A DNA stretch of 63,233 nucleotides, the filler included, from Atractiella rhizophila (lineage: Eukaryota), in the NCBI GenBank assembly GCA_021432655.1. It is 4 parts of 3 records of this genome, joined end to end, with 100 filler letters (N's around TTAATTAATTAA, not from the genome) between each part and the next. Parts side by side here need not be neighbours in the genome. Positions count along the whole stretch, not along the records: positions 12,655 to 37,059 come from MU271605.1; 3 more parts are not named here. One strand, 5' to 3'. Positions 23,227 through 53,121 of this stretch are shown in pieces; positions within the stretch are counted from its first letter, which is position 1; each line of letters begins with the position of its first letter. Under the pieces are notes generated by a model. The model ran no database searches. It had not been told where the DNA came from and saw only the letters and a program-made list of their open reading frames with translations. The position numbers and the translations under genes are program-made.

Positions 23227-23721
23227 CACTCACACGTTGCGCTCCATGATATGGCCTGTCAGAATGCAATAATGGCTCAATTTCTTCGCATAACACCTGC
23301 GAAAACAGGGGAGAGCATTCGGTGCATGAATAGTACACTGTCAACAATGCATTTGCTATAGATTGGCGGGGCTGAGCGGACCTAACGGTGCTACATTTGA
23401 CTGAGTTCATGCAAATGTATCAGTATCAGGAAGTGAATTCTATATGTTAATATAGCTTACAGCGGTGGCAACCAGAAATTCGTAGAACATTCAAGAAAGG
23501 TAAGGAGTTTTCCAAACCGAATGGCACAAATCGAAATTGAAAACCCAACAACATTCCCCAAACCTAGGGAGTAGTCGACACTTTTGCGTACTAGTAGATG
23601 CGTGACTACCATGAACTACCGACATATCTGTGCGTTCCACATAGATATAGTAAGCGAACGCCACCTTTGCTGCTGCTCTCCTATAGTCTCTTCCTCATCT
23701 CCCGACACAGATCGGACAACT

Positions 23722-25719
23722 TCAGTTCGTCGGTGTCGTGAAGCTCACAACCTTCGAATCGAAATGTTTGCATAGAGTTGATGGCCTTTCTGTAGCATTC
23801 TTCTCCCTACTCGAAAGCTTGGGGGTACTGGAGCAGTATCCGATATGAGCTGCGACGGCTTTAAGCCATAGGTCAAACTCTGTCCAAGGATAAATTTCTT
23901 CTTCGGTCTGTTGTAGCTGTAGCCAAACACGAGGGCATCCTTCGGTGAGGGAGAAAGTAAGATATGTATCGTTCCCTTGTAGTCGCTGATAATCCTGTAA
24001 CGTAACCGCAAACGGTCGCTGGGTGGATCTGCGGACAGCCCCATAGAGCGGCTGCCGTTCATGATCGATCGTGAAACGTAGAACGGTATTCCTCTCTCTA
24101 TGCGCTTTCACGAACCTGACGGTAGACAAAGCCAAAAGGATGTCCTGGGCCTGAGGAACAGATTGGACTGACGGTGTGTGCTAGAATAAAACGACAGTTA
24201 GGCCTGTCCAAGCTAACCGAAAATAAAATCGTGCCTTCACGCTGTTAAGCATGTCCGAAAGGATCTTCCCATTCTGTATTCCGCTTCTATCTTTGTTGAA
24301 TTGTATCGGCAACCCGACTGCATTGGAAGATTCCGGCAAGTTGGCCATGCTGCTTCTAGTCACTTCTGTGGCCGTCGTAGCTGCGGATGTATTAAACGGT
24401 AGATTGAATCCTGACGTGGTCGAAGAACTTGACTCGGCTTGGTGAGGGAAGTGGCCTGGGCTCATGGTATTGTACGTGTTATAAGGATTGGTTCGGATTT
24501 CGTCAGGGAGAGGCATGGCATCTGATTGATCCGAGAAATACAAGCACAGTACTAGTCGGAGTTCAATTAGCAGGTAGGTGATGGAGGACAGTGATTACTT
24601 TTCCCCCCGTCTTCTTGGTGGAGGTGGTATTGGTTCCTGACGAGCAAAGCAATTGCTTGTTCCTGGGTCCAGTCGTCCGGTATAAAATTCCAATGCGCCT
24701 ATGGGTTAAATGAAGTTGAACTTGGTAAGAAAGATAAGAAAAACATACAGCTGCACACAAGGAGCTCAAATCATCGTCGGAGGCAATAACGAATTCAACA
24801 AGGTTTTGCACCGGAGTTGAGCGGGACCGAAGGAGAATATCGACATAAACCGTCATCATCGCCTTCAAAAGTATGTCAAGGGCATCATGTATGTTTCCTG
24901 TCAAATCTTCGGCCTTAACCAGATCTGCTTTGCGTGCCTTGATTCGACTCAGAAACAACGTGTATTCTCCAAAGGTGAACTCAGGTGAGTGTATGCCTAG
25001 AACTCTATTACTGTTCGATCGATAAATGTTGAAAACATACTTGTTTGCTTCGGTCCAACTTGGGCCCTCGCTCCCTTGACATTGACTACGCAACCGTCAC
25101 TATTGAGGTCGACTGATTGGTGGCTCTGGGTAAAGACGGCTGCCGAATACTCGAGGGCTTTAACTATGCCAGTAACCAAGCAAATCCCGTCTTCTGCTTT
25201 CTGCGACGACAGAACAAAGCGCTTGAAGTGTTCCATAGCGGATGATCTATCCTGGACCTGAAGGCGTGTGGCACCGGAATTGGTGACAAGAAAAGCTGCC
25301 TGTTCAGATTGATTTTCGAACTTGGTCGTCCCAGAACTGAACATGAAATGTTGCTTAGTACTTCCAAAGTCAAAAGATCAGATAAGAACTGACACAGGGA
25401 GAGGCGGAAGATTGATTCCCTCACGACCTCTTACACAGCCATCACTACCATTGACCACCATGCTCTTGACCCGAATTTTCCCTGCAAACTTGGGCACTCC
25501 AGCCTTTAAGACCGACGCTTCGATTCTCCAGTCCAATCTATCGTTGTACTCTTCAAGTAGTTGAGTTGCTGTAAATGTCCCGTTGGTGCAGTAGCCGATA
25601 TCCCCGATTTTGCACTCCCTGTAATACTGACCATACAGAGTCATTGGGTTCGACAATGGAAAGTGGTCTGAAGAACAATACATATACGTTTGATAGACGG
25701 TGGATGGCGTCGATGACAT
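23722..25719 (-). CDS. Putative fungal gasdermin-like protein, copy 1 (N-terminal domain, S/T linker, unknown C-terminal domain)
   Basis: FPLSNP..KIGDIGY..NGTF; AAFLVTNSGATR; ICLVTGIVKA..YSAAVF; YTLFLSRIK; DALDILL..FVIASDDD. Spliced; family call is by motif recognition only. Confidence 0.55.
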
Positions 25720-27968
25720 GTTGCCTGCAAATGCGAAGTTGCGTCGAAGGGCATGGCCTTCGACGGTGAGAGGTACTTAATATAAGGCAGCACCGCTCAA
25801 ATACGCGTTTAACGACGATTCGTACAGCACAAGAAAGACGAAAAACATGTCTGTCGCGAGAGGTACGAACAGGCCAAACCAATGCATTGGGGTATGGATC
25901 CCAGCTTCTGTCCAAACACTCTAATTAAATACAACTGATACCATGCAGGTCAGAGTTTAGGAACAAGTTCAATTGTGACGGAAAGCTGGAACGGGTTAAT
26001 GGGAAAGCAAATCTGGGAAGTGCAATCTTAATACCGAAGAAGACAGAAGACACTCTTCTGCACTGTGCCATTTAATGCTTTAAGGATCTGCGTGATTGGA
26101 TATTTTTAAATATCAACTTAGTGTTCAACCTGCTCCGTCTACAGCAACACAATGGGGGTCGCAGTGGTTCCAAGTGATGGCAAAGTAATAGGGTTGAAAC
26201 AAATGTCCTGGGGTGGTTACAGTGAGTCCAACAAGTATGGCCGCACTTGACAAATGAAGTTTCATTTCACGAGTGGAGCATGCATTTGTCATAGTGAAGA
26301 TGGCACTGGATATCAACCAAAGTTGGTGAGGTGTTCTGGTGGACTGTGACTGTGATCAAGACGTGATGATCAGATGTTTCTGAAGACGTCGCTGAATCCA
26401 ATTTTGCAGCTGCCAAACTCCACCACAATATCACAGGATAACTTTAAAATTGGGTTAAAGAGGAAACTTTGTTTGGCGGGTTTCAGAGTAAGATTTTGTA
26501 TGTCTGATGATTGCGTTCCTTGTAGGTCCCGCAGATCTTGGGCTAGAATAGCTAAGCTAAACTGCAATTTGCTGCCGTCTTTCGATGGTACAATTGGAGT
26601 TCGAGCTCTCAAGTCTTCTGAACAGTAAGTACAGCTTTATCAGAATTGACTAGACAACATGGAGGAGCTACGTCGGTCAGATGTTGTTGAATAGTGGACG
26701 CTAAGTGGCTTAACAAGTGTCAACGACGCTTTGTATCCCTATGCTTTAAGATTTCGATGGAGGTCAATGGGAGGCTGTCAAAGGTTCACGCTGTCCCAAC
26801 AATTCATGCCGCAAAAATAGGTAGAGTCAGCAATGACGTGGTTGGTGGCTGGCAAACAAGCGGCTGTTAGCGAGAGAGGTAAGACCAAGTAACATTAGAA
26901 TCTGTTTATTGGTTTATTACCTTCGTACAATATTCGACGGAGCTCATCGACGATACACCAATAGGGAGGGAAGGGGGATGTGAGAGCATTTAGAAAGCTT
27001 CGTGTTACGGGAAGCATTGAGTTCAAGAATCGAGGAAGACTCACACTTCGAGTGCTTGTGACTATTAAGTACTACATTGCCCTTCCAAGCAGTCCGAAAG
27101 TGGACGTGAACATTATTTCCTACTAACTGCCTCAAGGGAAGTTTGCATTCAAACACATTGAATGAGTTATGACAAGAGGGAATGGATGTGACAGGGAAAA
27201 ATATAAGACGGACAAGCACCCCTTCCACGGCTGAACCAGACAGAAGAAAAAAACGCACCTTTGAAATTGATTGCGTTTAACCATGTTTGATCCTGCCGTA
27301 CAAGAATCCTACCAAACCTGCCATCAAACCAACGATCATTTCATTTCACTCCACTGCCAGCCTTTCACTTCGTCATGACGCGTTCTCGGACTGAACCATG
27401 ATACATTCGACGAGACGCGGAGCGATTCCAGGGGCGATTCGAGTTTCCTCTAGTTGGTCGTCTTGGGTGTCTGCAGGTTGGTCAGGACCTTAGTGCTAGT
27501 CGGAACCCGCCTTCGCGCTGGTGATATGATCGTGGCCTGGGCAGATGTCTCACGTGCTGTCCAAACTATCGTTCACTCACAGCATGTCTGGTTCGAGACT
27601 ACGTTTGTGTCCTACCTATAGAACATTTCCTGTCTTGCAGGCATAATTTCATGTGTTCCTTCCACGACCAGTGAGGACAAGGCAGTGCTGATTGGTAAAT
27701 GGAGGGTATCGGTATCGACGAAATTGCCCAACGCAACAGTGTCATTCCTTAGATATGCATCGTTATTTGAGGTGCAGGGTAAAAATCATGCGAAGTTGGG
27801 CAACAAGGAGTGATCATGTTTTGTGCATCAAACCACAGTTACACGCGTGTACAATCTTAATAATACCATCCTAATACAATAAGCAACTATTACTTTTGCG
27901 ATAGCCTGATGGCGTTCATGAGACCACAATCAGTGTCAATCGTTGTTGCGTCTCCGACTAGGACAAAA

Positions 27969-30063
27969 TCAGGATTTCGGGGGGCAAACAGAGCGAAAGA
28001 CGCACAGAGCCGCGCACATGTCTGTCAAATTCAGACCTTCAATTCGATGACGAAAACATCGCTCGAAGTGCTGGCAAATGGTTCCTGGTTTTTCCATCAC
28101 GTTCCGACATGAAGTGTAGCTAGGCGCAACGTTGCAGTATCCAAAGGATGCGGCAATACCTTTCAGCCACAGATCCCACTGGGTCCACGGAAACACTTCT
28201 TCTGGACAGGGTGAATTGCCGGAGGACGACCATACACGGGGGCATTCGTCCGTGAGCGCGAACGTAAGAAAGTCGCAGCTCGATTGTAAGCCCAAGAAAT
28301 TATGCTCGTCTACCGGAAACACTGTCTTATTAGGTTTGTAAATAGCGCCGTAGAGGGTTGGCAGTCCACTTTGGATGGCAGTGCGGAGAATGGTGTCCTT
28401 TTTTTCGAACGCTTTCACCACCACCTCTCGCGGTCTCTGAGAGGAGAGCATTGTTGCCCAGGCAGCCTGGATCGCAGGGGAAACGAAAGGCTGCGTGGAT
28501 GGGGTATGCTATAGAACAATTGTCAAAGTCAGTTTGGTCCATGGTAAAAGACTAAAATCGTGCCATCATGTTGAAAAACATGTCTGAGGAGAAAGTGCTA
28601 TCACGCATGTCAGCTTGCAACAGCAACCCGACCTCTTTGGAGGTCTCAGGCAGACTGTTCCTGCTGCTTCCAGCTACTGCTGTTGTTGTGGTAGTTGTCG
28701 ATGCGTTAAGAGATCGTCCATATGGTGATGTGGGACGAGGTTGACTCCAAGGATTCCCGTAGATTTCTTGAGGCGGAGGCCGATCGCATGCTTCTAGGGA
28801 GAAAGTAGAAAATGGGTTCAAAGGACCCGTCTGGGGTTTGTTGATGACATCCCCCGTGTCCTCGAATTGCAAGTAGAGCACTAGCTGAGCTTCAGTTGGG
28901 GAATAGGTGAAGGAAGATTGAACTACTCTTCTCGTCGACTTGCAAGTGAACTATGTTCCGGGAAAGCAGAGCGATTGCCTGTTCCTCTGTCCAGTCTTCC
29001 GTTGTGAAGTTCCAACGTGCCTATCGGTTAAATGAAGCTGAAATGTGCTTGAGGAGAAGAAACATACAACTGCACACAAAGAACTCAAATCATCGTCGGA
29101 GGCCACAACGAATTTAACTTCATCTTGCATCAGAGTTAGGTGAGAGAGCCAGACCATCAACATCGCCTTCTGGAGCACATCGACAGCATCGGTCATGTTT
29201 ACTGACGGATCTTCAGCCTTCTCTAGATCTGCTCTGCTTCGCACCTTGATTCGACTCAGATATAAAGTGTGGCTGCCAATGGGTAGCTCAGGTGTTGAGT
29301 ATATACCGTCTCATAGACATCTGTTACTCTTCCTCAGGAGATACATGCTGAAAACATACCTCGTCCCTCCTGTCCACCATGGACAGTCGCCCCGTTATCG
29401 TTCCAGGAATCACCACCGAAGTAGGATCCAGTTGATTCAAATCCGTGGTGGAGGTCGAGTGATTGGTTCGGCTCTGTGAAGGTGCCCGCCAACCAATCGT
29501 GGGCTTTGACCATTCCAGTAATCATGCAAATTCCGGTGATCAAGCAGATTCCGTCCTTCCCCTCCTCGGCAGACTGAATAAAGCGCTTGAAGTGTTCATA
29601 GCAAATGATTTATTCTGGACCTGAAGGCGGATGGCGCCGAAGTTTGTGAGGAGAAAAGCTGCTTTTTCTGATAGACTTTCGAACTCAGTCGTCAAAGAAC
29701 TGAGCACCAAATTGTTTTCGTACGTCCAAAGTCAAAAAGATCAGATAGAACTGACGTAGAGAGTGGAGGTAGATTGACGCCCACGCTGGGATTAACTCCC
29801 ATGCTCTTGACACGAAGCTTCCCTGCAAACTTGGGTATTCCAGCTTCTAGAGCGAATCCAGCAACCGTCCAGGCAAATGCATCGCTGTATTCTTCGACTG
29901 GTCGAGTTGTCACAAATGTACCGTCCTGGCAGTAACCGATATCCCCGATTCTGCTCTCCCTGTAATGCTCATCACCCTGCGCCCCTGGGTTCTGGAGGAG
30001 AAAGTGGTTCTGTTTAGAGCAATACATGAGAGTTTGATAGATAGTGCATGGTTTAGAAGACAT
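27969..30063 (-). pseudogene. Paralogue of 23722-25719 (gasdermin-like copy 2) with a 1-bp frameshift near 29597
   Basis: Collinear peptides (RIGDIGYCQDGTF; AGIPKFAGKLRVKSM; ICMITGMVKA; FVVASDDDLSSLCA; LTFALTDECPRVW; FPWTQWDLWLKGIAASFGYC) and the same intron positions; gct atg aa cac versus gct atg gaa cac in copy 1. Confidence 0.7.
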
Positions 30064-31912
30064 GTTGCTGAGTTGTATGGTTGTGCTTGTGGATGTGAAG
30101 GCCCTTTGAGAGATATGCTCGTAGACATGGGCGGTGGTTGATATATTGTGAGTTCTAGCGGAACACGCTTCTAACAGTGCGTGCTTCACGAAAAAGACGA
30201 GAAGCATGCCGTTCTCGTGCAGTACGAACAGACCTATGCATCAATATGAATATATACCTAGCTTACGACGACTTCTCTCCAAACATCCCTAAACGAACCC
30301 CAAGATCTAAAGCATCCAAATTGGGAGCTAAAGGGCATCACGGTAGAATTGCTTGAGCCACATCCAATTGAGTCAGCGAATTCGCGTGTCGTTTTTACCG
30401 CAAAGGGCAAAGAATGAAGGTCGAAGGTTGAAATTTTCTGAGCCAGGGAAGGGCCCGCGTACGATGGACGTTCTGAATGCGGAAGAAGGTCCTCGTTTAC
30501 ACTATGTAATTGATTGTCTGAGGAATTTGAAAGCAGCACAAGAAATAAATTTTAGAATAATATCAGCATACGAAGAGACTTCGGAACAGCTTCCATTCTG
30601 TTCAACGGAAGGTCAATCAGTAACATGATGAACGCTGCAGACGTTCCAAGCGATAACAACATTGTATGCTCCAAAAAATGTCGGTCGGCGTTTTGGAATA
30701 ATTGACGCTGTCGACAAGTATCGGCACCCATCTCTCCAGGAGAATATTTAGTTGTGCGTTTCTAAAGGTGTGCCATTCATAAGGTATCGTCAGCAAAGCC
30801 CAGAACAAAACCGAAGAATTCGTTCCTGCAGTAAACTTTATCCTAGTATCACATTCTCCAGAATGCGAACTGCGGATAATCCAGGTAAAATCGGTCGAGA
30901 GGGGGAAAGAAGGCCTCAAAGTAAGTGGCAGCACGGGATCATTAACGTTCCTCGAGCCGCAAGACGAGGCAGAGCTGGAACTGCAAGTTTCCGAGAATTA
31001 TTTAATATGAGTGAAATCGGAGTCTCTCACGGCGTAAACAACGAGGACGGCTTCATTCGAATTGGAATGGGAGAACATTGACAAGTTACATCATCGCTGG
31101 GTGGCCGAACGTCTGTCCAATTCCGATGTCACGATCCCCTAAGATTTCTAGGTAGCTGAAACGCAGTTGAAGCATCACGCCGTTAAAACAGTTTATGTCG
31201 AGTCGAGTACGCAGTCATGCAGTTGACAGGAGGAAACTACCTTTCATAAGAATATAAGATAGGTTTCGGCGAAACTGCTTTAATGTAAATCGGTATAAGT
31301 TCATCTCAAGCGGACGCGGGCAGTTTATCCGTACGAAAGCATTGACTTTGAGAATCAAGAAAGACACACTTGTCGAGTGCTCATGGTGACGACAGGTTGA
31401 GAGGTCTCCAAGTGATCAGTTCGTTTCTGCGTAAATGCGGTAAATAGATTGAAATGTATTGACTGGCCCTTCAGAAGGAAGAAACCTGCGGCCTCAGGCT
31501 GGGTAGAAAAAGATCAGAGACAGAGATAAGATGATGTCGACCCAATTAGTCGATTGCTCAGTCGTACGAACGTCCAGCTTGTCTAGCAAGGAAAACTTCA
31601 GCGAAGACGGAGGGAACGCGGACAATAATGAAGCTACACCCAACCTGAGTTCTCAAAACAGTAGACTGTACCTGTAAATCTGTCCATGCCTTTTCGTACA
31701 TTGGCGGTGCTTGCTTGTGCCTAGCATGGCTGCCTATCATCATCCATTTCATCCATCGCCATTCTGTCAGCACAAGACGCATTCCCAGCCGGGAACAATG
31801 CTGACGTGGTCAAAGGACACGGGACTCGGAGTATTATGCGTTCGCTTCGTTCGGATTCCTTCACGGCTGACGCGCTGACGCTGATCAGTGCGGATGGTCG
31901 TTTGGAACAGAG

Positions 31913-35985: not shown

Positions 35986-37059
35986 ATGCTCAGATCATTT
36001 TCTCGTCAACCCGTTCTCAGGGCTTCTCGTTCTCCCCTCATCCGACAAAATGTCGCTTCTCTCGTAAGTCTCTTCAGGTGGCGAAGGAATTGCGTTCTGA
36101 ATGGCTTCTGCCTGTCATCTAGGCGCGATACCAGTCAACCGACAGTAAAGTCAGTGGACCCGTCATCGGTATCGACTTGGGAACAACAAATTCTTGCGTT
36201 TCCATAATGGAAGGTAAGACCCCTCGAGTTATCGAGAACTCGGAAGGAGGTCGTACGACTCCCTCCGTCGTCGCCTTCACTAAGGATGGGGAACGATTGG
36301 TCGGTCTACCTGCGAAACGTCAAGCCGTTGTCAACTACGAGAACACCTTTTTCGCCACGAAGCGACTCATTGGAAGGAAGTACACCGACGATGCAGTTCA
36401 GAAGGATCTTAACAACGTTCCTTACAAGATTGTGAAGCACACCAACGGAGATGCTTGGCTCGAGGCTAGGGGAAAGCAGTATTCGCCGTCTCAGATTGGT
36501 GCTTTCGTTGTTGGAAAAATGAGGGATACGGCTGAGGGCTATCTCGGAAAGAGCGTCAAACATGCTGGTGAGTTTTTTCTGCGGTGATATCTCCAGGGCC
36601 TGTGGGAAGATTTTTTTCAAGGCCCGATTTTTTTTGCCGGGTTGTGTGCTGACGCGGCCCTTTTCTTTCAGTTGTCACCGTCCCTGCCTATTTCAATGAC
36701 TCTCAGCGTCAAGCCACTAAGGATGCTGGTACGATCGCCGGTCTTGATGTCCTTCGTGTCATCAACGAGCCTACTGCCGCCGCTCTTGCTTATGGAGCTG
36801 AGAGGGAGGACTCGAAGCAGATCGCTGTCTACGATCTCGGAGGAGGAACTTTCGACGTTTCCATTCTTGAGATGCAGAAGGGAGTTTTCGAGGTCAAGTC
36901 GACGAACGGAGACACTCACCTCGGAGGAGAAGATTTCGATATTGCCCTCGTCAATCACATCCTTGAGGACTTCAAGAAAGATGCTGGTATCGATCTCAGC
37001 AAGGATCGAATGGCTATCCAACGTATCCGTGAGGCTGCTGAGAAGGCCAAGATTGAACT
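35986..37059 (+). CDS. SSC1: Mitochondrial Hsp70, 3' truncated by contig gap
   Basis: Arg/Ser-rich presequence; [85 protein letters not shown]. Confidence 0.96.
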
Positions 37060-37159
37060 NNNNNNNNNNNNNNNNNNNNNNNNNNNNNNNNNNNNNNNNN
37101 NNNTTAATTAATTAANNNNNNNNNNNNNNNNNNNNNNNNNNNNNNNNNNNNNNNNNNNN
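37060..37159. other. Artificial contig spacer (44N-TTAATTAATTAA-44N)
   Basis: Same layout as the other two spacers. Confidence 0.97.
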
Positions 37160-48562: not shown

Positions 48563-51500
48563 TCAAAACCTTTTTGTAGCAGGTTCTTGTGTAACACCTG
48601 CTACTTTTTCTGCCTGTCCAATTCTATCCAGCAAATTGTCACAGTCTTCAATGTCTGAAGCTGCACAGCATTCTGTGTAAAGCTGACAAGCTTTCACAAT
48701 TTCCTCCCTCGCTTCAGCATAATTTGACAATAGGAAGAGTTGTTGTGCCATTCTCTCTCTGCTGAATGCCTCCAAGTAGCCACCCACTGTCTGACTCACA
48801 ATGATTGCTTGCTTATAAAACTCAATCGCCTTCATGAACTGAGAGTCCTGAATGAGAGCAGAAGCAGTGCTGTAGAGACAATTGAGTTGACCTCCCACAT
48901 CTTCAAGGGCTAAATAGAGCTGCTTTGCCTCCTCAAACAGTTTCAGTGCTTCCTCAATCTTCCCGCGACGCTGCTTGATCTCCCCCATGCTGCGAATGCA
49001 GTGGGCCAGGCCTTGCCGATCTTCCACCACCAGATACAGCTGCTTTGCCTCCTCAAACTGTTTCAGTGCTTCCTCAATCTTCCCACGACGCTGCTCGATC
49101 TCCCCCATGCTGCGAATGCAGTGGGCCAGGCCTCGCCGATCTTCCACCACCAGATACAGCTGCTTTGCCTCCTCAAACTGTTTCAGTGCTTCCTCATTCT
49201 TCCCACGATGCTGCTCGATCTCCCCCATGCTGCGAATGCAGTGGGCCAGGCCTTGCCCATCTTCCACCACCAGATACAGCTGCTTTGCCTCCTCAAACTG
49301 TTTCAGTGCTTCCTCATTCTTCCCACGACGCTGCTCGATCTCCCCCATGCTGAGAATGCAGTGGGCCAGGCCTCGCCGATCTTCCACCACCAGATACAGC
49401 TGCTTTGCCTCCTCAAACTGTTTCAGTGCTTCCTCATTCTTCCCACGACGCTGCTCGATCTCCCCCATGCTGAGAATGCAGTGGGCCAGGCCTCGCCGAT
49501 CTTCCACCACCAGATACAGCTGCTTTGCCTCCTCAAACTGTTTCAGTGCTTCCTCATTCTTCCCACGACCCTGCTCGATCTCCCCCATGCTGCGAATACA
49601 GTGGGCCAGGCCTCGCCGATCTTCCACCACCAGATACAGCTGCTTTGCCTCCTCAAACTGTTTCAGTGCTTCCTCATTCTTCCCACAACCCTGCTCGATC
49701 GCCCCCATGCTGCGAATACAGTGGGCCAGGCCTCGCCGATCTTCCACCACCAGATACAGCTGCTTTGCCTCCTCAAACTGTTTCAGTGCTTCCTCATTCT
49801 TCCCACGACGCTGCTCGATCTCCCCCATGCTGCGAATGCAGTGGGCCAGGCCTTGCCGATCTTCCCACGACCGTGCTCGATCGCCCCCATGCTGCGAATA
49901 CAGTGGGCCAGGCCTTGCCAATCTTCCAACACCAGATACAGCTGCTTTGCCTCCTCAAACTGTTTCAGCGCCTGTTGTAGGTTGCCCTTCTGTCGAAAAC
50001 ATAATCCAAGAGCCCTCTTCAATTTTGCTGTGGCTGCTGGGGGTGATGTAACCTTCTTGCAAGACAAAGCACACTGAATCAATGCCACTGAGAGGAGGCT
50101 TTGAAGATGCAGAAAGTTCCATATTTCTACAATGAAATTGAATCCTGTTGTCGGATCTTTGAGATGTTTGAAAGAAGCTAGCAATATGCGTTCAAGGTTT
50201 GGAAAATCGTTGCGAAAAGTCAACAGTCCGATCCGTTCAGCATCATCTTCGAAACGTCGAAAATTTTTACGAGCCTTCTCAATCAGACCTTCAGTTAACG
50301 GTTCGAGCGATAAAGTGGTGACTTTGAAAGGAGGAAGAGGACCCAACACCCAAACGGTTGATATATTCACGAATCGGGGCCAGCATGCGCAATCGTGATG
50401 TGTGTGTAAGAATATCATCAACATTTTCAGCAAGTCCGACCTTTAAGATTGAGGTGACGAGCACAGCAGAATCCTCTGAATGGGGAAGGCTGGAGTTATT
50501 GCCAAAGGCGATAATGTCGTCAGCCAGAAGACCATCAGGGGTCCACGATAGAAGGGCAAGGATAAAAGCACTGAGGTCCTCATTCTTCTTGACCAGAGGC
50601 GAATCGAACGAGAAGGAGATCGAAGTTGCCAGAGTGTGCGTCTCTTCGCTGTCTTCGTTCCAGAGTACGTTCGTTTTCTTTACCTCCCATTCACCCACCA
50701 AAACCCTTAGCTCCTTGGTGGATTCTTCATTCGCACGAAGAATGAAGAGCTTGATAGACAAGGCATGACGATCCAGCTTGGCGACGATGTCTTCGACTAA
50801 CTGGTCATCACCCTGGCGATATCCTTTTCTGCCCACGTACATATATTCAAACATACCAAGCGCGCCGACGTCGCTCAAGCCTCCAATCACTAGTTCTTGA
50901 AATCTCACACCTTTCGAGTTCACACGCTCAACTTGATGGCCTCGATGTACTACAACGAGAATAGAACCAGAAGGGCATTGTCTGGAAAAGAAAGCCTGGA
51001 AGAATGGCTGTAGGTTATTCTTGTCAGCCCGTGCAGGGGTCTCAAAGTTATCGAGGATAAGGAGACACTTGTGAGTGTTGAAATAGCGTGTGATAGCAGT
51101 AAGCTCATCCTCGCCAGGCGGAGGAGCTAATCCAAAAACTTCCTTGCAAAGGTTGATCGAGAGCGAGGAGAAGTCGGAGAAAGCGTCGCACCGTGCCCAA
51201 AAGCGAAAGTCTGCTTCCTTGCCATCCGTGGCGGTCCTGAATGCGTTTTTGATTTTGTCTGCATGTAGGACTTCCAGTGCAACGGTAGATTTGCCATTCC
51301 CTGCACCACCAATGATAGCAAGGTGCTTCTTGTCGGTAAGGATGAATTCTATCGCTTTCTCAACCTCCTCTTCTCTTCCGTAACAAGCTGCTAGAGGAGG
51401 TAAAGCAATCTTCCTGTGCACTGCGACACGATCTTTATGGTCTACAGAGCAGAACGTTAGCATACAATCACCAGCGACGAAGAATATACCTTTCGCCAGC

Positions 51501-53121
51501 GATTGAGCAACGCTCATCACTTCATGCTTCATCGCTTCCATGTAGGCCTTCGTACCGCCTACCGCATCATTCTTTCGCCACCACTCCTGCCACTTGAATT
51601 CTCCAAACGTATCGACCGAGAAACGATGGTAACAATGCCCCGTCCTCCGCTCTTGCATCATCACCTTCACCTCGTTCGAAACCCTTGAGCAATCCATGAC
51701 TATTGCCTCCAATGCTCGCTCAACATCATCTCGAGTGTGGCCCAACTTGATGGCAGGCGTAATGCCAGAACCGAGGGACACAAGACAGGCGATCTCAATA
51801 CTGGATCCCCAAATTCGCTTCGCTTCTTCAACAGCTATCGCTGTAGGATTGTCGCGACCTACGTTAACGTAACCAGTGGAATCCATGTTGATGGGAGGAA
51901 AGAAGGGAGGACGGGCAGCGGTCGCTCTTGCAGCTTCCCAGACCTTGTACGTGGGAGCAGGGAAAAATGGAGATGATGAAGCACCAGGAATATTGTAGGT
52001 GCGCATCTCCGTGGAAACGGTGACATTGGCCTCGTAGGTAGAAACGACAAAAGTCTTGCATCTGACTTGCACAGAATCATCTTTCATGGATAGCGATTTC
52101 GCAGAATCCTGAGAAGAGTTCATATGCCGCTGGATGATAGTGATGAAAGTTTCTTCAAGCTTTTCCGCTGAGTAAGCGTACTCGCCATTTGAGAGGGAGT
52201 CCTTTTCTAGAAAAACTTTCAGGGTGATCTCTTCATATGCCGCAATGCATTGGCGAACGGTCATTCCGAGCCTCCCAAGCATAAGTGCGATCCATCCCCC
52301 AGTGGAAGTTCCACAAATGAGATCAAATATATCGCAAGGACGAAGGTCCTCGCCTTCCGGCACATCGAGAAGTTGTGCAGCTTGAAGCATGATCTGTTCC
52401 AGCATGTATGGAGCGGAAAAGGAACGGATGCCTCCATTGTCGATGCAAAGGATCCGCAATCCCTTAGGATTCGCTTTCTTGATGTTCTCGGCAACCGCAA
52501 AGATCTTGACAGGATGATCCGCAGACATGTAGGTGAAAGCAGGATTGGATGGTAACGGCACAAGTTAGAAGGGCAGGGTTGGGCCCGATTGTGGAAAATT
52601 GAGGAAAGTGTGAGGTTTAAGTCAGTTCTAGCACCAATCCCATCAGGCTGGCTCCTGAGCGTTACGCGGATAAATGAAGCAAAAAGGACAGATATATCGG
52701 TATCCTTTGATCCCTTGTCATCGCATTCAAGGGTTACGATCAATGATGTGGGGAACACAGACGCAACTTGCAAGCTCGACAATCAATTTGTTTTCCCCCG
52801 TGGTTCTTGTTCTGATGGATCTTCCCCTTTCGCGGGCGTCCGTGTCAGAAATACGTATATCGCAGCAAATAAACTGAAGAACGCTAAAAGGTGGCTACTT
52901 TTCTGGTATGGAGACAAGTTCAACATCAGGTAGATATTTCACCCTTCTCTATGAAAGAAAATGCGACAGGGCAACATCTCGATACCCAATACTCAAATGA
53001 TGATTCAACTCACAAGGATGTCTTTGACTGTCTCGCTGGACGTTAAGCTGCGCTGTGATAAGACAGGTTCCTGCTCTTGGATTCCCAACCGTCCGCCTTC
53101 CGATTGGCTGTATTTGGTCAT
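48563..53121 (-). CDS. NLR-like protein: patatin-like phospholipase, STAND P-loop NTPase (NB-ARC-like), TPR array; frameshifted at ~49860 as assembled
   Basis: LRILCIDNGGIR, FDLICGTSTGG, WEAARATAA; Walker A GGAGNGKST, Walker B LLILDNFET, MLAPIREY; 40-aa TPR repeats. Introns near 51443-51490 and 50291-50349; first exon from 53121 is tentative. Confidence 0.88.
48918..49968 (-). repeat. Tandem array of ~8.5 near-identical 120-bp units encoding 40-aa TPR repeats
   Basis: Full units begin at 49021, 49141, 49261, 49381, 49501, 49621 and 49741; consensus GLAHCIRSMGEIEQRRGKNEEALKQFEEAKQLYLVVEDRR. Confidence 0.97.

Follow-up and report, generated by a model that had tools for sequence, protein, structure and literature searches.

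Damaged tandem paralogues of Atractiella rhizophila with a candidate gasdermin-like N-terminal domain and an orphan Cys/His-rich C-terminal domain

Does a tandem pair of spliced paralogues in the basidiomycete Atractiella rhizophila encode gasdermin-like proteins that carry a regulatory domain of their own, and are both genes still intact? The pair, here called copy A (upstream) and copy B (downstream), lies on the minus strand of a 63,233-nt stretch of assembly GCA_021432655.1 (the window, made of four parts of three records joined by filler, along which all positions are counted), within the part taken from MU271605.1. An initial annotation, made from the sequence alone, had proposed a gasdermin-like cell-death or allorecognition module with an unrecognised C-terminal domain. 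Our best reading is of a birth-and-death family of the cell-death type, with a new domain architecture if its N-terminal domain (N-domain) is indeed gasdermin-like. More specifically, and tentatively, since we hold this to be a little less than an even call, A and B would be old tandem duplicates from a narrowly distributed family that ancestrally joined a gasdermin-like N-domain to a regulatory C-terminal domain (C-domain), at a locus that is now decaying. Both copies are damaged, a point absent from the initial annotation, and neither encodes the complete ancestral protein.

The copies were spliced by homology plus GT/GC..AG rules, and public contigs, including a DNA run (X1) and spliced, RNA-derived contigs (X3), were compared over 23600-30300. 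The ATG of copy A stands at 30063 and that of copy B at 25719, a spacing of 4,344 bp, in agreement with the ~4.35 kb originally given for the pair. Copy A (27936..30269, RNA contigs extending to 30269) has seven exons (29756-30063, 29360-29699, 29068-29309, 28927-29020, 28564-28880, 28006-28508 and 27936-27957), and copy B (23722..25719) has six (25394-25719, 25041-25336, 24749-24996, 24599-24698, 24235-24551 and 23722-24180), which form an open reading frame (ORF) of 581 aa. Five introns occupy homologous places in the two genes, as had been claimed (A, 29700-29755, 29310-29359, 29021-29067, 28881-28926 and 28509-28563; B, 25337-25393, 24997-25040, 24699-24748, 24552-24598 and 24181-24234), and copy A has an additional sixth (27958-28005). 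RNA supports 8 of the 11 introns, 7 of them among the 10 at homologous positions: one spliced X3 contig connects exons 2 to 7 of copy A (introns 2-6), an X5 contig stops at the last base of its exon 1 and runs on into the opening ten letters of exon 2 (intron 1), and introns 4 and 5 of copy B are spliced out in X3 record 9, which starts at ~24699-24704 (exons 4 to 6). Introns 1-3 of copy B are placed by homology alone. The border of intron 5 is GC-AG in both paralogues, as the spliced contigs confirm, and its donor context, GCACGATTTTA, is kept between them. One further X3 contig (side 30, depth 6.5) carries a joint from 29719 to 29773 with plus-strand GT..AG ends, antisense to copy A across the border of exon 1 and intron 1; either an antisense transcript or an artefact could account for it.

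Nucleotide homology between the copies runs from ~170 nt 5' of each ATG through to the stop codons. The similar upstream sequence that had been noticed at the outset belongs to a ~60-nt conserved 5' leader block, ~160 nt before the ATG, in which both copies have the decamer CTGTTCGTAC (A 30222-30231, B 25863-25872, minus strand); the leader block of copy A is transcribed, as X3 record 12 extends to 30269. The proteins are ~48% identical overall and 33-68% identical per exon, far beyond chance, with the lowest value (33%) in exon 5, which encodes an S/T/N-rich linker (B 24235..24551, A 28564-28880). This linker and the N-terminal motif order that had been listed are all present in the translations. 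Ratios of non-synonymous to synonymous substitution (dN/dS) between A and B are 0.15-0.45 in the six exon pieces with computable dS, so that purifying selection acted on both copies for most of their divergence. The pair is thus old and real, and was long held under such selection.

Each copy nevertheless carries a lesion. In copy A, a 1-nt deletion in exon 2 (29589..29602, minus strand), one G fewer than in B, shifts the frame after codon 137, and translation from the ATG stops after 155 aa. X3 record 11 spans 29360-29719 with 0 gaps, and no indel is listed there for X1 at a depth of ~157. X4 record 20 has one net extra letter somewhere within 29392-29652; this letter might restore the frame in another strain, and the strains may not all carry the frameshift. 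The same exon holds an in-frame 18-nt tandem duplication (29514..29549, minus strand; ICLITG/ICMITG), which creates the Met that starts a 447-aa ORF downstream of the frameshift, and it is this ORF that appears as the public model P0003 (447 aa, beginning MITGMVKA). Around the duplication, seven variant sites fall within 81 nt (29486-29566); X1 shows them at roughly half depth and X3 at full depth, a pattern indicative of two haplotypes or of the repeat units exchanging sequence.

In copy B, a 5-nt tandem duplication (TTCGA twice, 23754..23763, minus strand) shifts the frame, swaps the last ~25 conserved residues for 12 unrelated ones and thereby removes from the C-domain the last three of its seven invariant Cys/His residues; the frame actually read stops at 23722. 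The 25 codons of the ancestral-frame tail are still open (23681..23758, minus strand), out of frame with the gene, and in alignment with A and two unlinked paralogues (P0002 and P0004, described below) they carry a Cys, a His and a Cys that are invariant in the family. Only by a frame jump over the duplication can one reach the motif 'C.HFE.C' and the final stop (23681) that the initial annotation had assigned to copy B. X1 record 1 and X3 record 9 each show the duplicated form with 0 gaps, and the public model of copy B, P0001 (246 aa), covers exons 5-6, starting in exon 5. X3 differs from the window at other sites and is therefore not the same assembly; with both lesions in gap-free X1 and X3 contigs, the damaged forms exist outside this assembly.

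How widely is the family distributed? A full HMMER scan with the C-domain of B against 1,835,955,588 representative proteins (E<=0.001) returned eight matches, of which four were repeat-protein noise and four were real (P0001, P0003, P0002 and P0004); all four of the latter, in a scan of 1.84 billion proteins, were named Atractiella rhizophila. P0002 (611 aa) is a full-length, intact and unlinked paralogue. P0004 (389 aa), likewise unlinked, has ~30 family-like residues at its start, then the linker and the C-domain, and additionally a ~150-aa unrelated tail, but lacks the core of the N-domain; either part of the gene has been deleted internally or the gene model leaves out exons. For the N-domain, a word-index search with exon 1 of B, P0002 and profile A3 found only P0002 and P0009, a 171-aa ORF call over exon 1 of copy A, although this search missed known relatives too. 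Metagenome scans (A4 and A5) matched 595 and 597 pattern stretches, none of them a confirmed relative. By these sequence searches, N-domain relatives beyond the products of the window and P0002 were not found, a negative of little weight. Feature comparison in the ESM Atlas gave unnamed Basidiomycota clusters as look-alikes of the N-domain, at 0.96 in all 30 best feature matches.

Is the N-domain gasdermin-like? It is ~330 aa long and beta-rich (B exons 1-3, 24749..25719, plus exon 4; A 28927-30063; minus strand), and in both copies can be aligned to the N-terminal part of P0002 (alignments A2 and A3). Its nearest named clusters by Atlas features were PF26164 (Bact_GSDM; 0.86, 152 of 256 features) and PF04598 (pejvakin; 0.82). 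The Atlas's own model of the domain aligned to GSDMD, pejvakin and two bacterial gasdermin (bGSDM) clusters with template modelling (TM) scores of 0.37-0.39 by query, and gasdermin families made up four of the nine structure rows listed, or four of the six that name a family. The remaining rows included an unnamed 261-aa Bacteroidota cluster (TM 0.53/0.67 over 226 residues) and an 801-aa Basidiomycota WD40 protein, aligned over its non-WD40 part (TM 0.68). As the domain aligns outside the WD40 part of that protein, its use as an N-terminal effector module is suggested, and from these structural models the layout of the cluster suggests an effector domain fused to a sensor. The C-domain, run through the Atlas as an internal contrast, returned mixed, chance-level rows (0.80-0.84).

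Several results weigh against a gasdermin assignment. No gasdermin was matched by Pfam at E<=1 on P0001-P0004 and seven exon translations (PF26164 being outside the library used), by PADLOC and NCBIfam models at E<=10, or by phmmer of P0002 and the A3 profile at E<=10 against 177,635 distinct PDB sequences, a library expected to include the solved gasdermins of fungi, bacteria and animals. The N-domain profile gave six chance-level matches in 401 Bacteroidota genomes, four of them with internal stop codons. In the same genomes, an attempt to gather bacterial gasdermins with PF04598 yielded 15 chance-level matches, none over the cut-off; CHAT (PF12770) matched in 219 of the 401, too many to be screened for neighbouring gasdermins, and four candidate ORFs had no PADLOC match. 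AlphaFold2 (AF2) modelling of P0002 from an 8-row alignment reached a mean predicted local distance difference test score (pLDDT) of 37 in the N-domain, with residues 1-469 below 50 and the linker-homologous part at ~24-30; this is too low for a usable model of the N-domain, and Foldseek on it returned only noise (best E 0.41). The Atlas model of the N-domain is itself poor (pLDDT 0.44), its TM scores to named gasdermins are below 0.5, its named feature scores are below 0.9, and the 152 features in common fall short of the 170 typical of true family members; the Atlas rates such rows as leads that are often due to chance. At ~330 aa the domain is also longer than microbial gasdermins usually are. 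In the public models an intact N-domain is missing from three of the four family members, while all four keep the linker and C-domain, so the conserved function may sit in the latter, for which, too, four of the five AF2 models had pLDDT values of 48-54.

The gasdermin reading has thus gained a lead from Atlas features and structure and no sequence or profile similarity in any search, and the match to a basidiomycete gasdermin family that had been proposed in the initial annotation was not reproduced by any sequence search. On the structural leads we place a gasdermin-like fold of the N-domain just on the probable side. The strongest alternative is that the domain is a lineage-restricted, beta-rich non-gasdermin, that these are fast-evolving orphan genes in duplication and loss, and that the Atlas likeness reflects generic beta-sheet features of a poor model. 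This would accord with the want of any profile-level match to a gasdermin model or solved chain, with named-cluster scores (0.82-0.86) and TM scores (0.37-0.39) of a kind that the tool describes as often chance, with a TamB row among the Atlas structure matches, and with the failure of AF2 to produce a confident fold. It accounts less readily for the recurrence of animal and bacterial gasdermin families in those four of six named structure rows, for the lack of comparable coherence in the C-domain control, and for a like N-terminal region that precedes WD40 repeats in a basidiomycete cluster, the typical position of a death effector. We consider this alternative a real possibility, if rather less than probable.

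The C-domain spans ~140 aa (A exon 6, 28006..28508; B 23722-24180; minus strand), and the four paralogues have 32 invariant positions in common, among them five Cys and two His (C89, C125, C145, H147, C151, H154 and C165 in A exon 6 numbering). The one remaining AF2 model of the five was confident (pLDDT 75.2, predicted TM score 0.68) and consists of a beta-rich core followed by helices that bear a C-x-H-x3-C-x2-H motif; the Cys/His pattern suggests metal binding, as a prediction. Against Pfam, PDB sequences, Foldseek and VIA-align the domain gave nothing above noise, which does not imply that its fold is novel. Fungal immunomodulatory proteins, the best Foldseek candidates in the PDB, were rejected as noise (best E 0.034, TM 0.15-0.23, root-mean-square deviation ~15). 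The C-terminal domain is conserved and unrecognised, as first described, and with four genes, one species and seven invariant Cys/His it makes a clean example of an orphan domain. By analogy, a role as built-in inhibitor or sensor is plausible; a predicted complex of P0002 residues 1-345 with 455-605 scored 0.00, a 'no answer' that speaks neither for nor against interaction.

The distribution of the C-domain raises a second alternative, in which the conserved functional unit, perhaps an interaction module that binds metal, is the linker plus the Cys/His C-domain. The N-domain would be an optional accessory in the course of being lost, and the relevant products would be the short ones, P0001 of copy B (246 aa) and P0003 of copy A (447 aa), which resemble P0004. 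The C-domain is found in all four members, with its seven Cys/His invariant, and a complete N-domain only in the P0002 model; the lone spliced RNA contig on B contains exons 4-6 only, at a depth of 115 versus 14 for A; and the public model of B begins in exon 5. However, the 5-nt duplication has deprived the C-domain of B itself of three of those seven residues, exons 1-3 of B are open over 288 codons with dN/dS of 0.33-0.45 versus A, so that the N-domain was selected until recently, and contig depth is a poor measure of expression. X3, X4 and X5 contigs over B 24720-25840 amount to a trace (depth 0.31), and missing cover of this kind is not evidence of silence. We regard this alternative as unlikely.

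Two further explanations fare worse. The initial annotation had offered, as an alternative, that A and B function together as two components, in the manner of the antagonistic RCD-1 alleles, and that their co-expression triggers death. Two diverged paralogues do stand side by side, both at least partly transcribed, but we judge this very improbable: the frame of A is broken after codon 137, a form seen in DNA and in RNA contigs, B lacks the conserved C-terminal end, and both genes lie in one haplotype, whereas RCD-1 incompatibility depends on alleles brought together only by cell fusion, according to the available portion of PMC12881547. In place of two intact antagonistic forms of the RCD-1 type, the locus has a 155-aa stub and a protein with its tail lost. 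That both lesions are assembly errors in two intact, full-length genes is likewise highly improbable, for although errors of 1 nt in a GG run are common and X4 record 20 carries its one net extra letter, X1 and X3 contigs span both sites with 0 gaps, X3 is a different assembly, the public models avoid the frameshift (P0003 starting after it), and a 5-nt tandem duplication is untypical of sequencing error.

Among the 81 ORFs of at least 90 aa that lie outside the pair between 13 and 41 kb, none has a protease domain, although a protease in exons shorter than 90 aa could escape such a search; the earlier observation that no protease adjoins the pair thus stands, for a distance of ~10 kb. The neighbours are P450, DnaJ, kinase and Hsp70 genes. 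ORFs antisense to the Hsp70 gene (36306-37111, minus strand) match PF10712 (NAD-GH), a spurious family known to derive from the opposite strand of Hsp70, and do not represent a real gene. Some 18 kb from the pair, the window also contains a fungal NLR-type receptor gene (48563-52564, minus strand) in two adjoining long ORFs, one with Patatin and NACHT domains (50291-52564) and one with TPR repeats (48563-49954). Between the paralogues, a stretch at ~26870-27531 is transcribed, as seen in an X3 contig (27249-27531, depth 23) and in X4 contigs with joints from 26902 to 26969 and from 26997 to 27047, the second with minus-strand GT..AG ends; the longest ORF of this stretch (110 aa, 26944-27276, minus strand) has no Pfam match.

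Under the reading that we prefer, of old duplicates with a gasdermin-like N-domain and a regulatory C-domain, the ancestral protein, intact in P0002, would consist of a ~330-aa beta-rich N-domain, a ~130-aa disordered S/T-rich linker and a ~140-aa Cys/His domain. The first would probably be a gasdermin-like, membrane-attacking execution domain and the last probably a metal-binding regulatory or sensor module, in lieu of the short inhibitory tail and neighbouring protease that known microbial gasdermins have. The locus would be decaying in this genome, as families of cell-death and immune genes in fungi usually do: copy A can make only the 155-aa stub, or the 447-aa product without the first ~165 residues, and copy B retains its open 581-aa frame but has lost the last three invariant Cys/His. 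A cell-death function and a regulatory role for the C-domain are, as specific claims, doubtful. A bolder proposal, which we think quite unlikely, is of a basidiomycete gasdermin-like executioner held in check by a built-in, orphan, metal- or redox-sensing Cys/His C-domain on a long disordered tether instead of by a protease encoded nearby, with C-domain-only paralogues as antidotes or decoys; the short B product and P0004 would then act in trans, within a self-contained toxin-and-regulator family evolving by tandem duplication and decay. Should the gasdermin lead fail, what is left is a duplicated gene in ordinary decay, restricted to one species and with no function assigned.

Comparison with characterised gasdermins shows what would be new here. 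As with the gasdermin HET-Q1 and the adjacent subtilisin HET-Q2, a candidate pore-forming N-domain is followed by a C-terminal part that could restrain it, in a fungal gene from a birth-and-death type of family. According to the available portion of PMC8851545, HET-Q1 of Podospora anserina sheds no more than a ~5-kDa tail, and of 1,884 het-Q1 homologues 80% lie no further than 10 kb from a protease gene; in Atractiella, by contrast, ~280 residues follow the N-domain, no protease lies within ~10 kb and the Pfam and PDB profile searches detected no sequence similarity. The same portion describes het-Q1 homologues as ubiquitous in Ascomycota, and fungal gasdermins in general are reported as abundant there in the accessible parts of PMC8851545, PMC10197012 and PMC12881547, whereas Atractiella rhizophila is a basidiomycete. 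In the passages and abstracts consulted, neither a basidiomycete gasdermin nor a fungal gasdermin with a large Cys/His C-terminal domain was described. If the N-domain of this Pucciniomycotina root fungus is gasdermin-like, the family would reach basidiomycetes below the sensitivity of sequence searches.

RCD-1-1 and RCD-1-2 of Neurospora crassa, forms of a cleavage-independent fungal gasdermin (PDB 8JYY/8JYZ; PMC12881547, in its available portion), resemble the pair as two diverged forms of one gene, in the Atractiella case a candidate gasdermin-like one, and in that no protease is involved. They are, however, allelic, whereas A and B are tandem paralogues in one haplotype, one of them frameshifted; RCD-1 also lacks a large C-terminal domain, and the N-domain profile matched no PDB chain at E<=10. 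Bacterial gasdermins (PF26164; PDB 8SL0, as given in the accessible part of PMC12881547) supplied the nearest named Atlas feature cluster (0.86) and structure matches of TM 0.37-0.38 by query and 0.44-0.47 by row. They differ in being ~260 aa long, with a short tail and an adjacent protease, and PADLOC gave the Atractiella N-domain no match at E<=10; short inhibitory tails are reported for microbial gasdermins generally in the available portions of PMC10197012 and PMC12881547. Fungal sensor proteins in which an N-terminal death-effector domain is fused to WD40, TPR or ANK repeats find a parallel in the 801-aa Basidiomycota WD40 cluster that aligns to the N-domain, but here the partner is a small Cys/His domain, with no repeat array and no NACHT or NB-ARC. 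Animal gasdermins (GSDMD and pejvakin; PF04598 with PF17708) offer a parallel in overall plan, having two domains, a long linker and a sizeable C-terminal domain, with Atlas TM scores of 0.37-0.39. The C-domain of the Atractiella family is in contrast beta-rich with Cys/His motifs, and neither PF17708 (Gasdermin_C) nor PF04598 was matched. If its N-domain is gasdermin-like, the family would add to that of animals a second, independent example of a regulatory C-terminal domain of large size and would offer a form of control that is independent of proteases.

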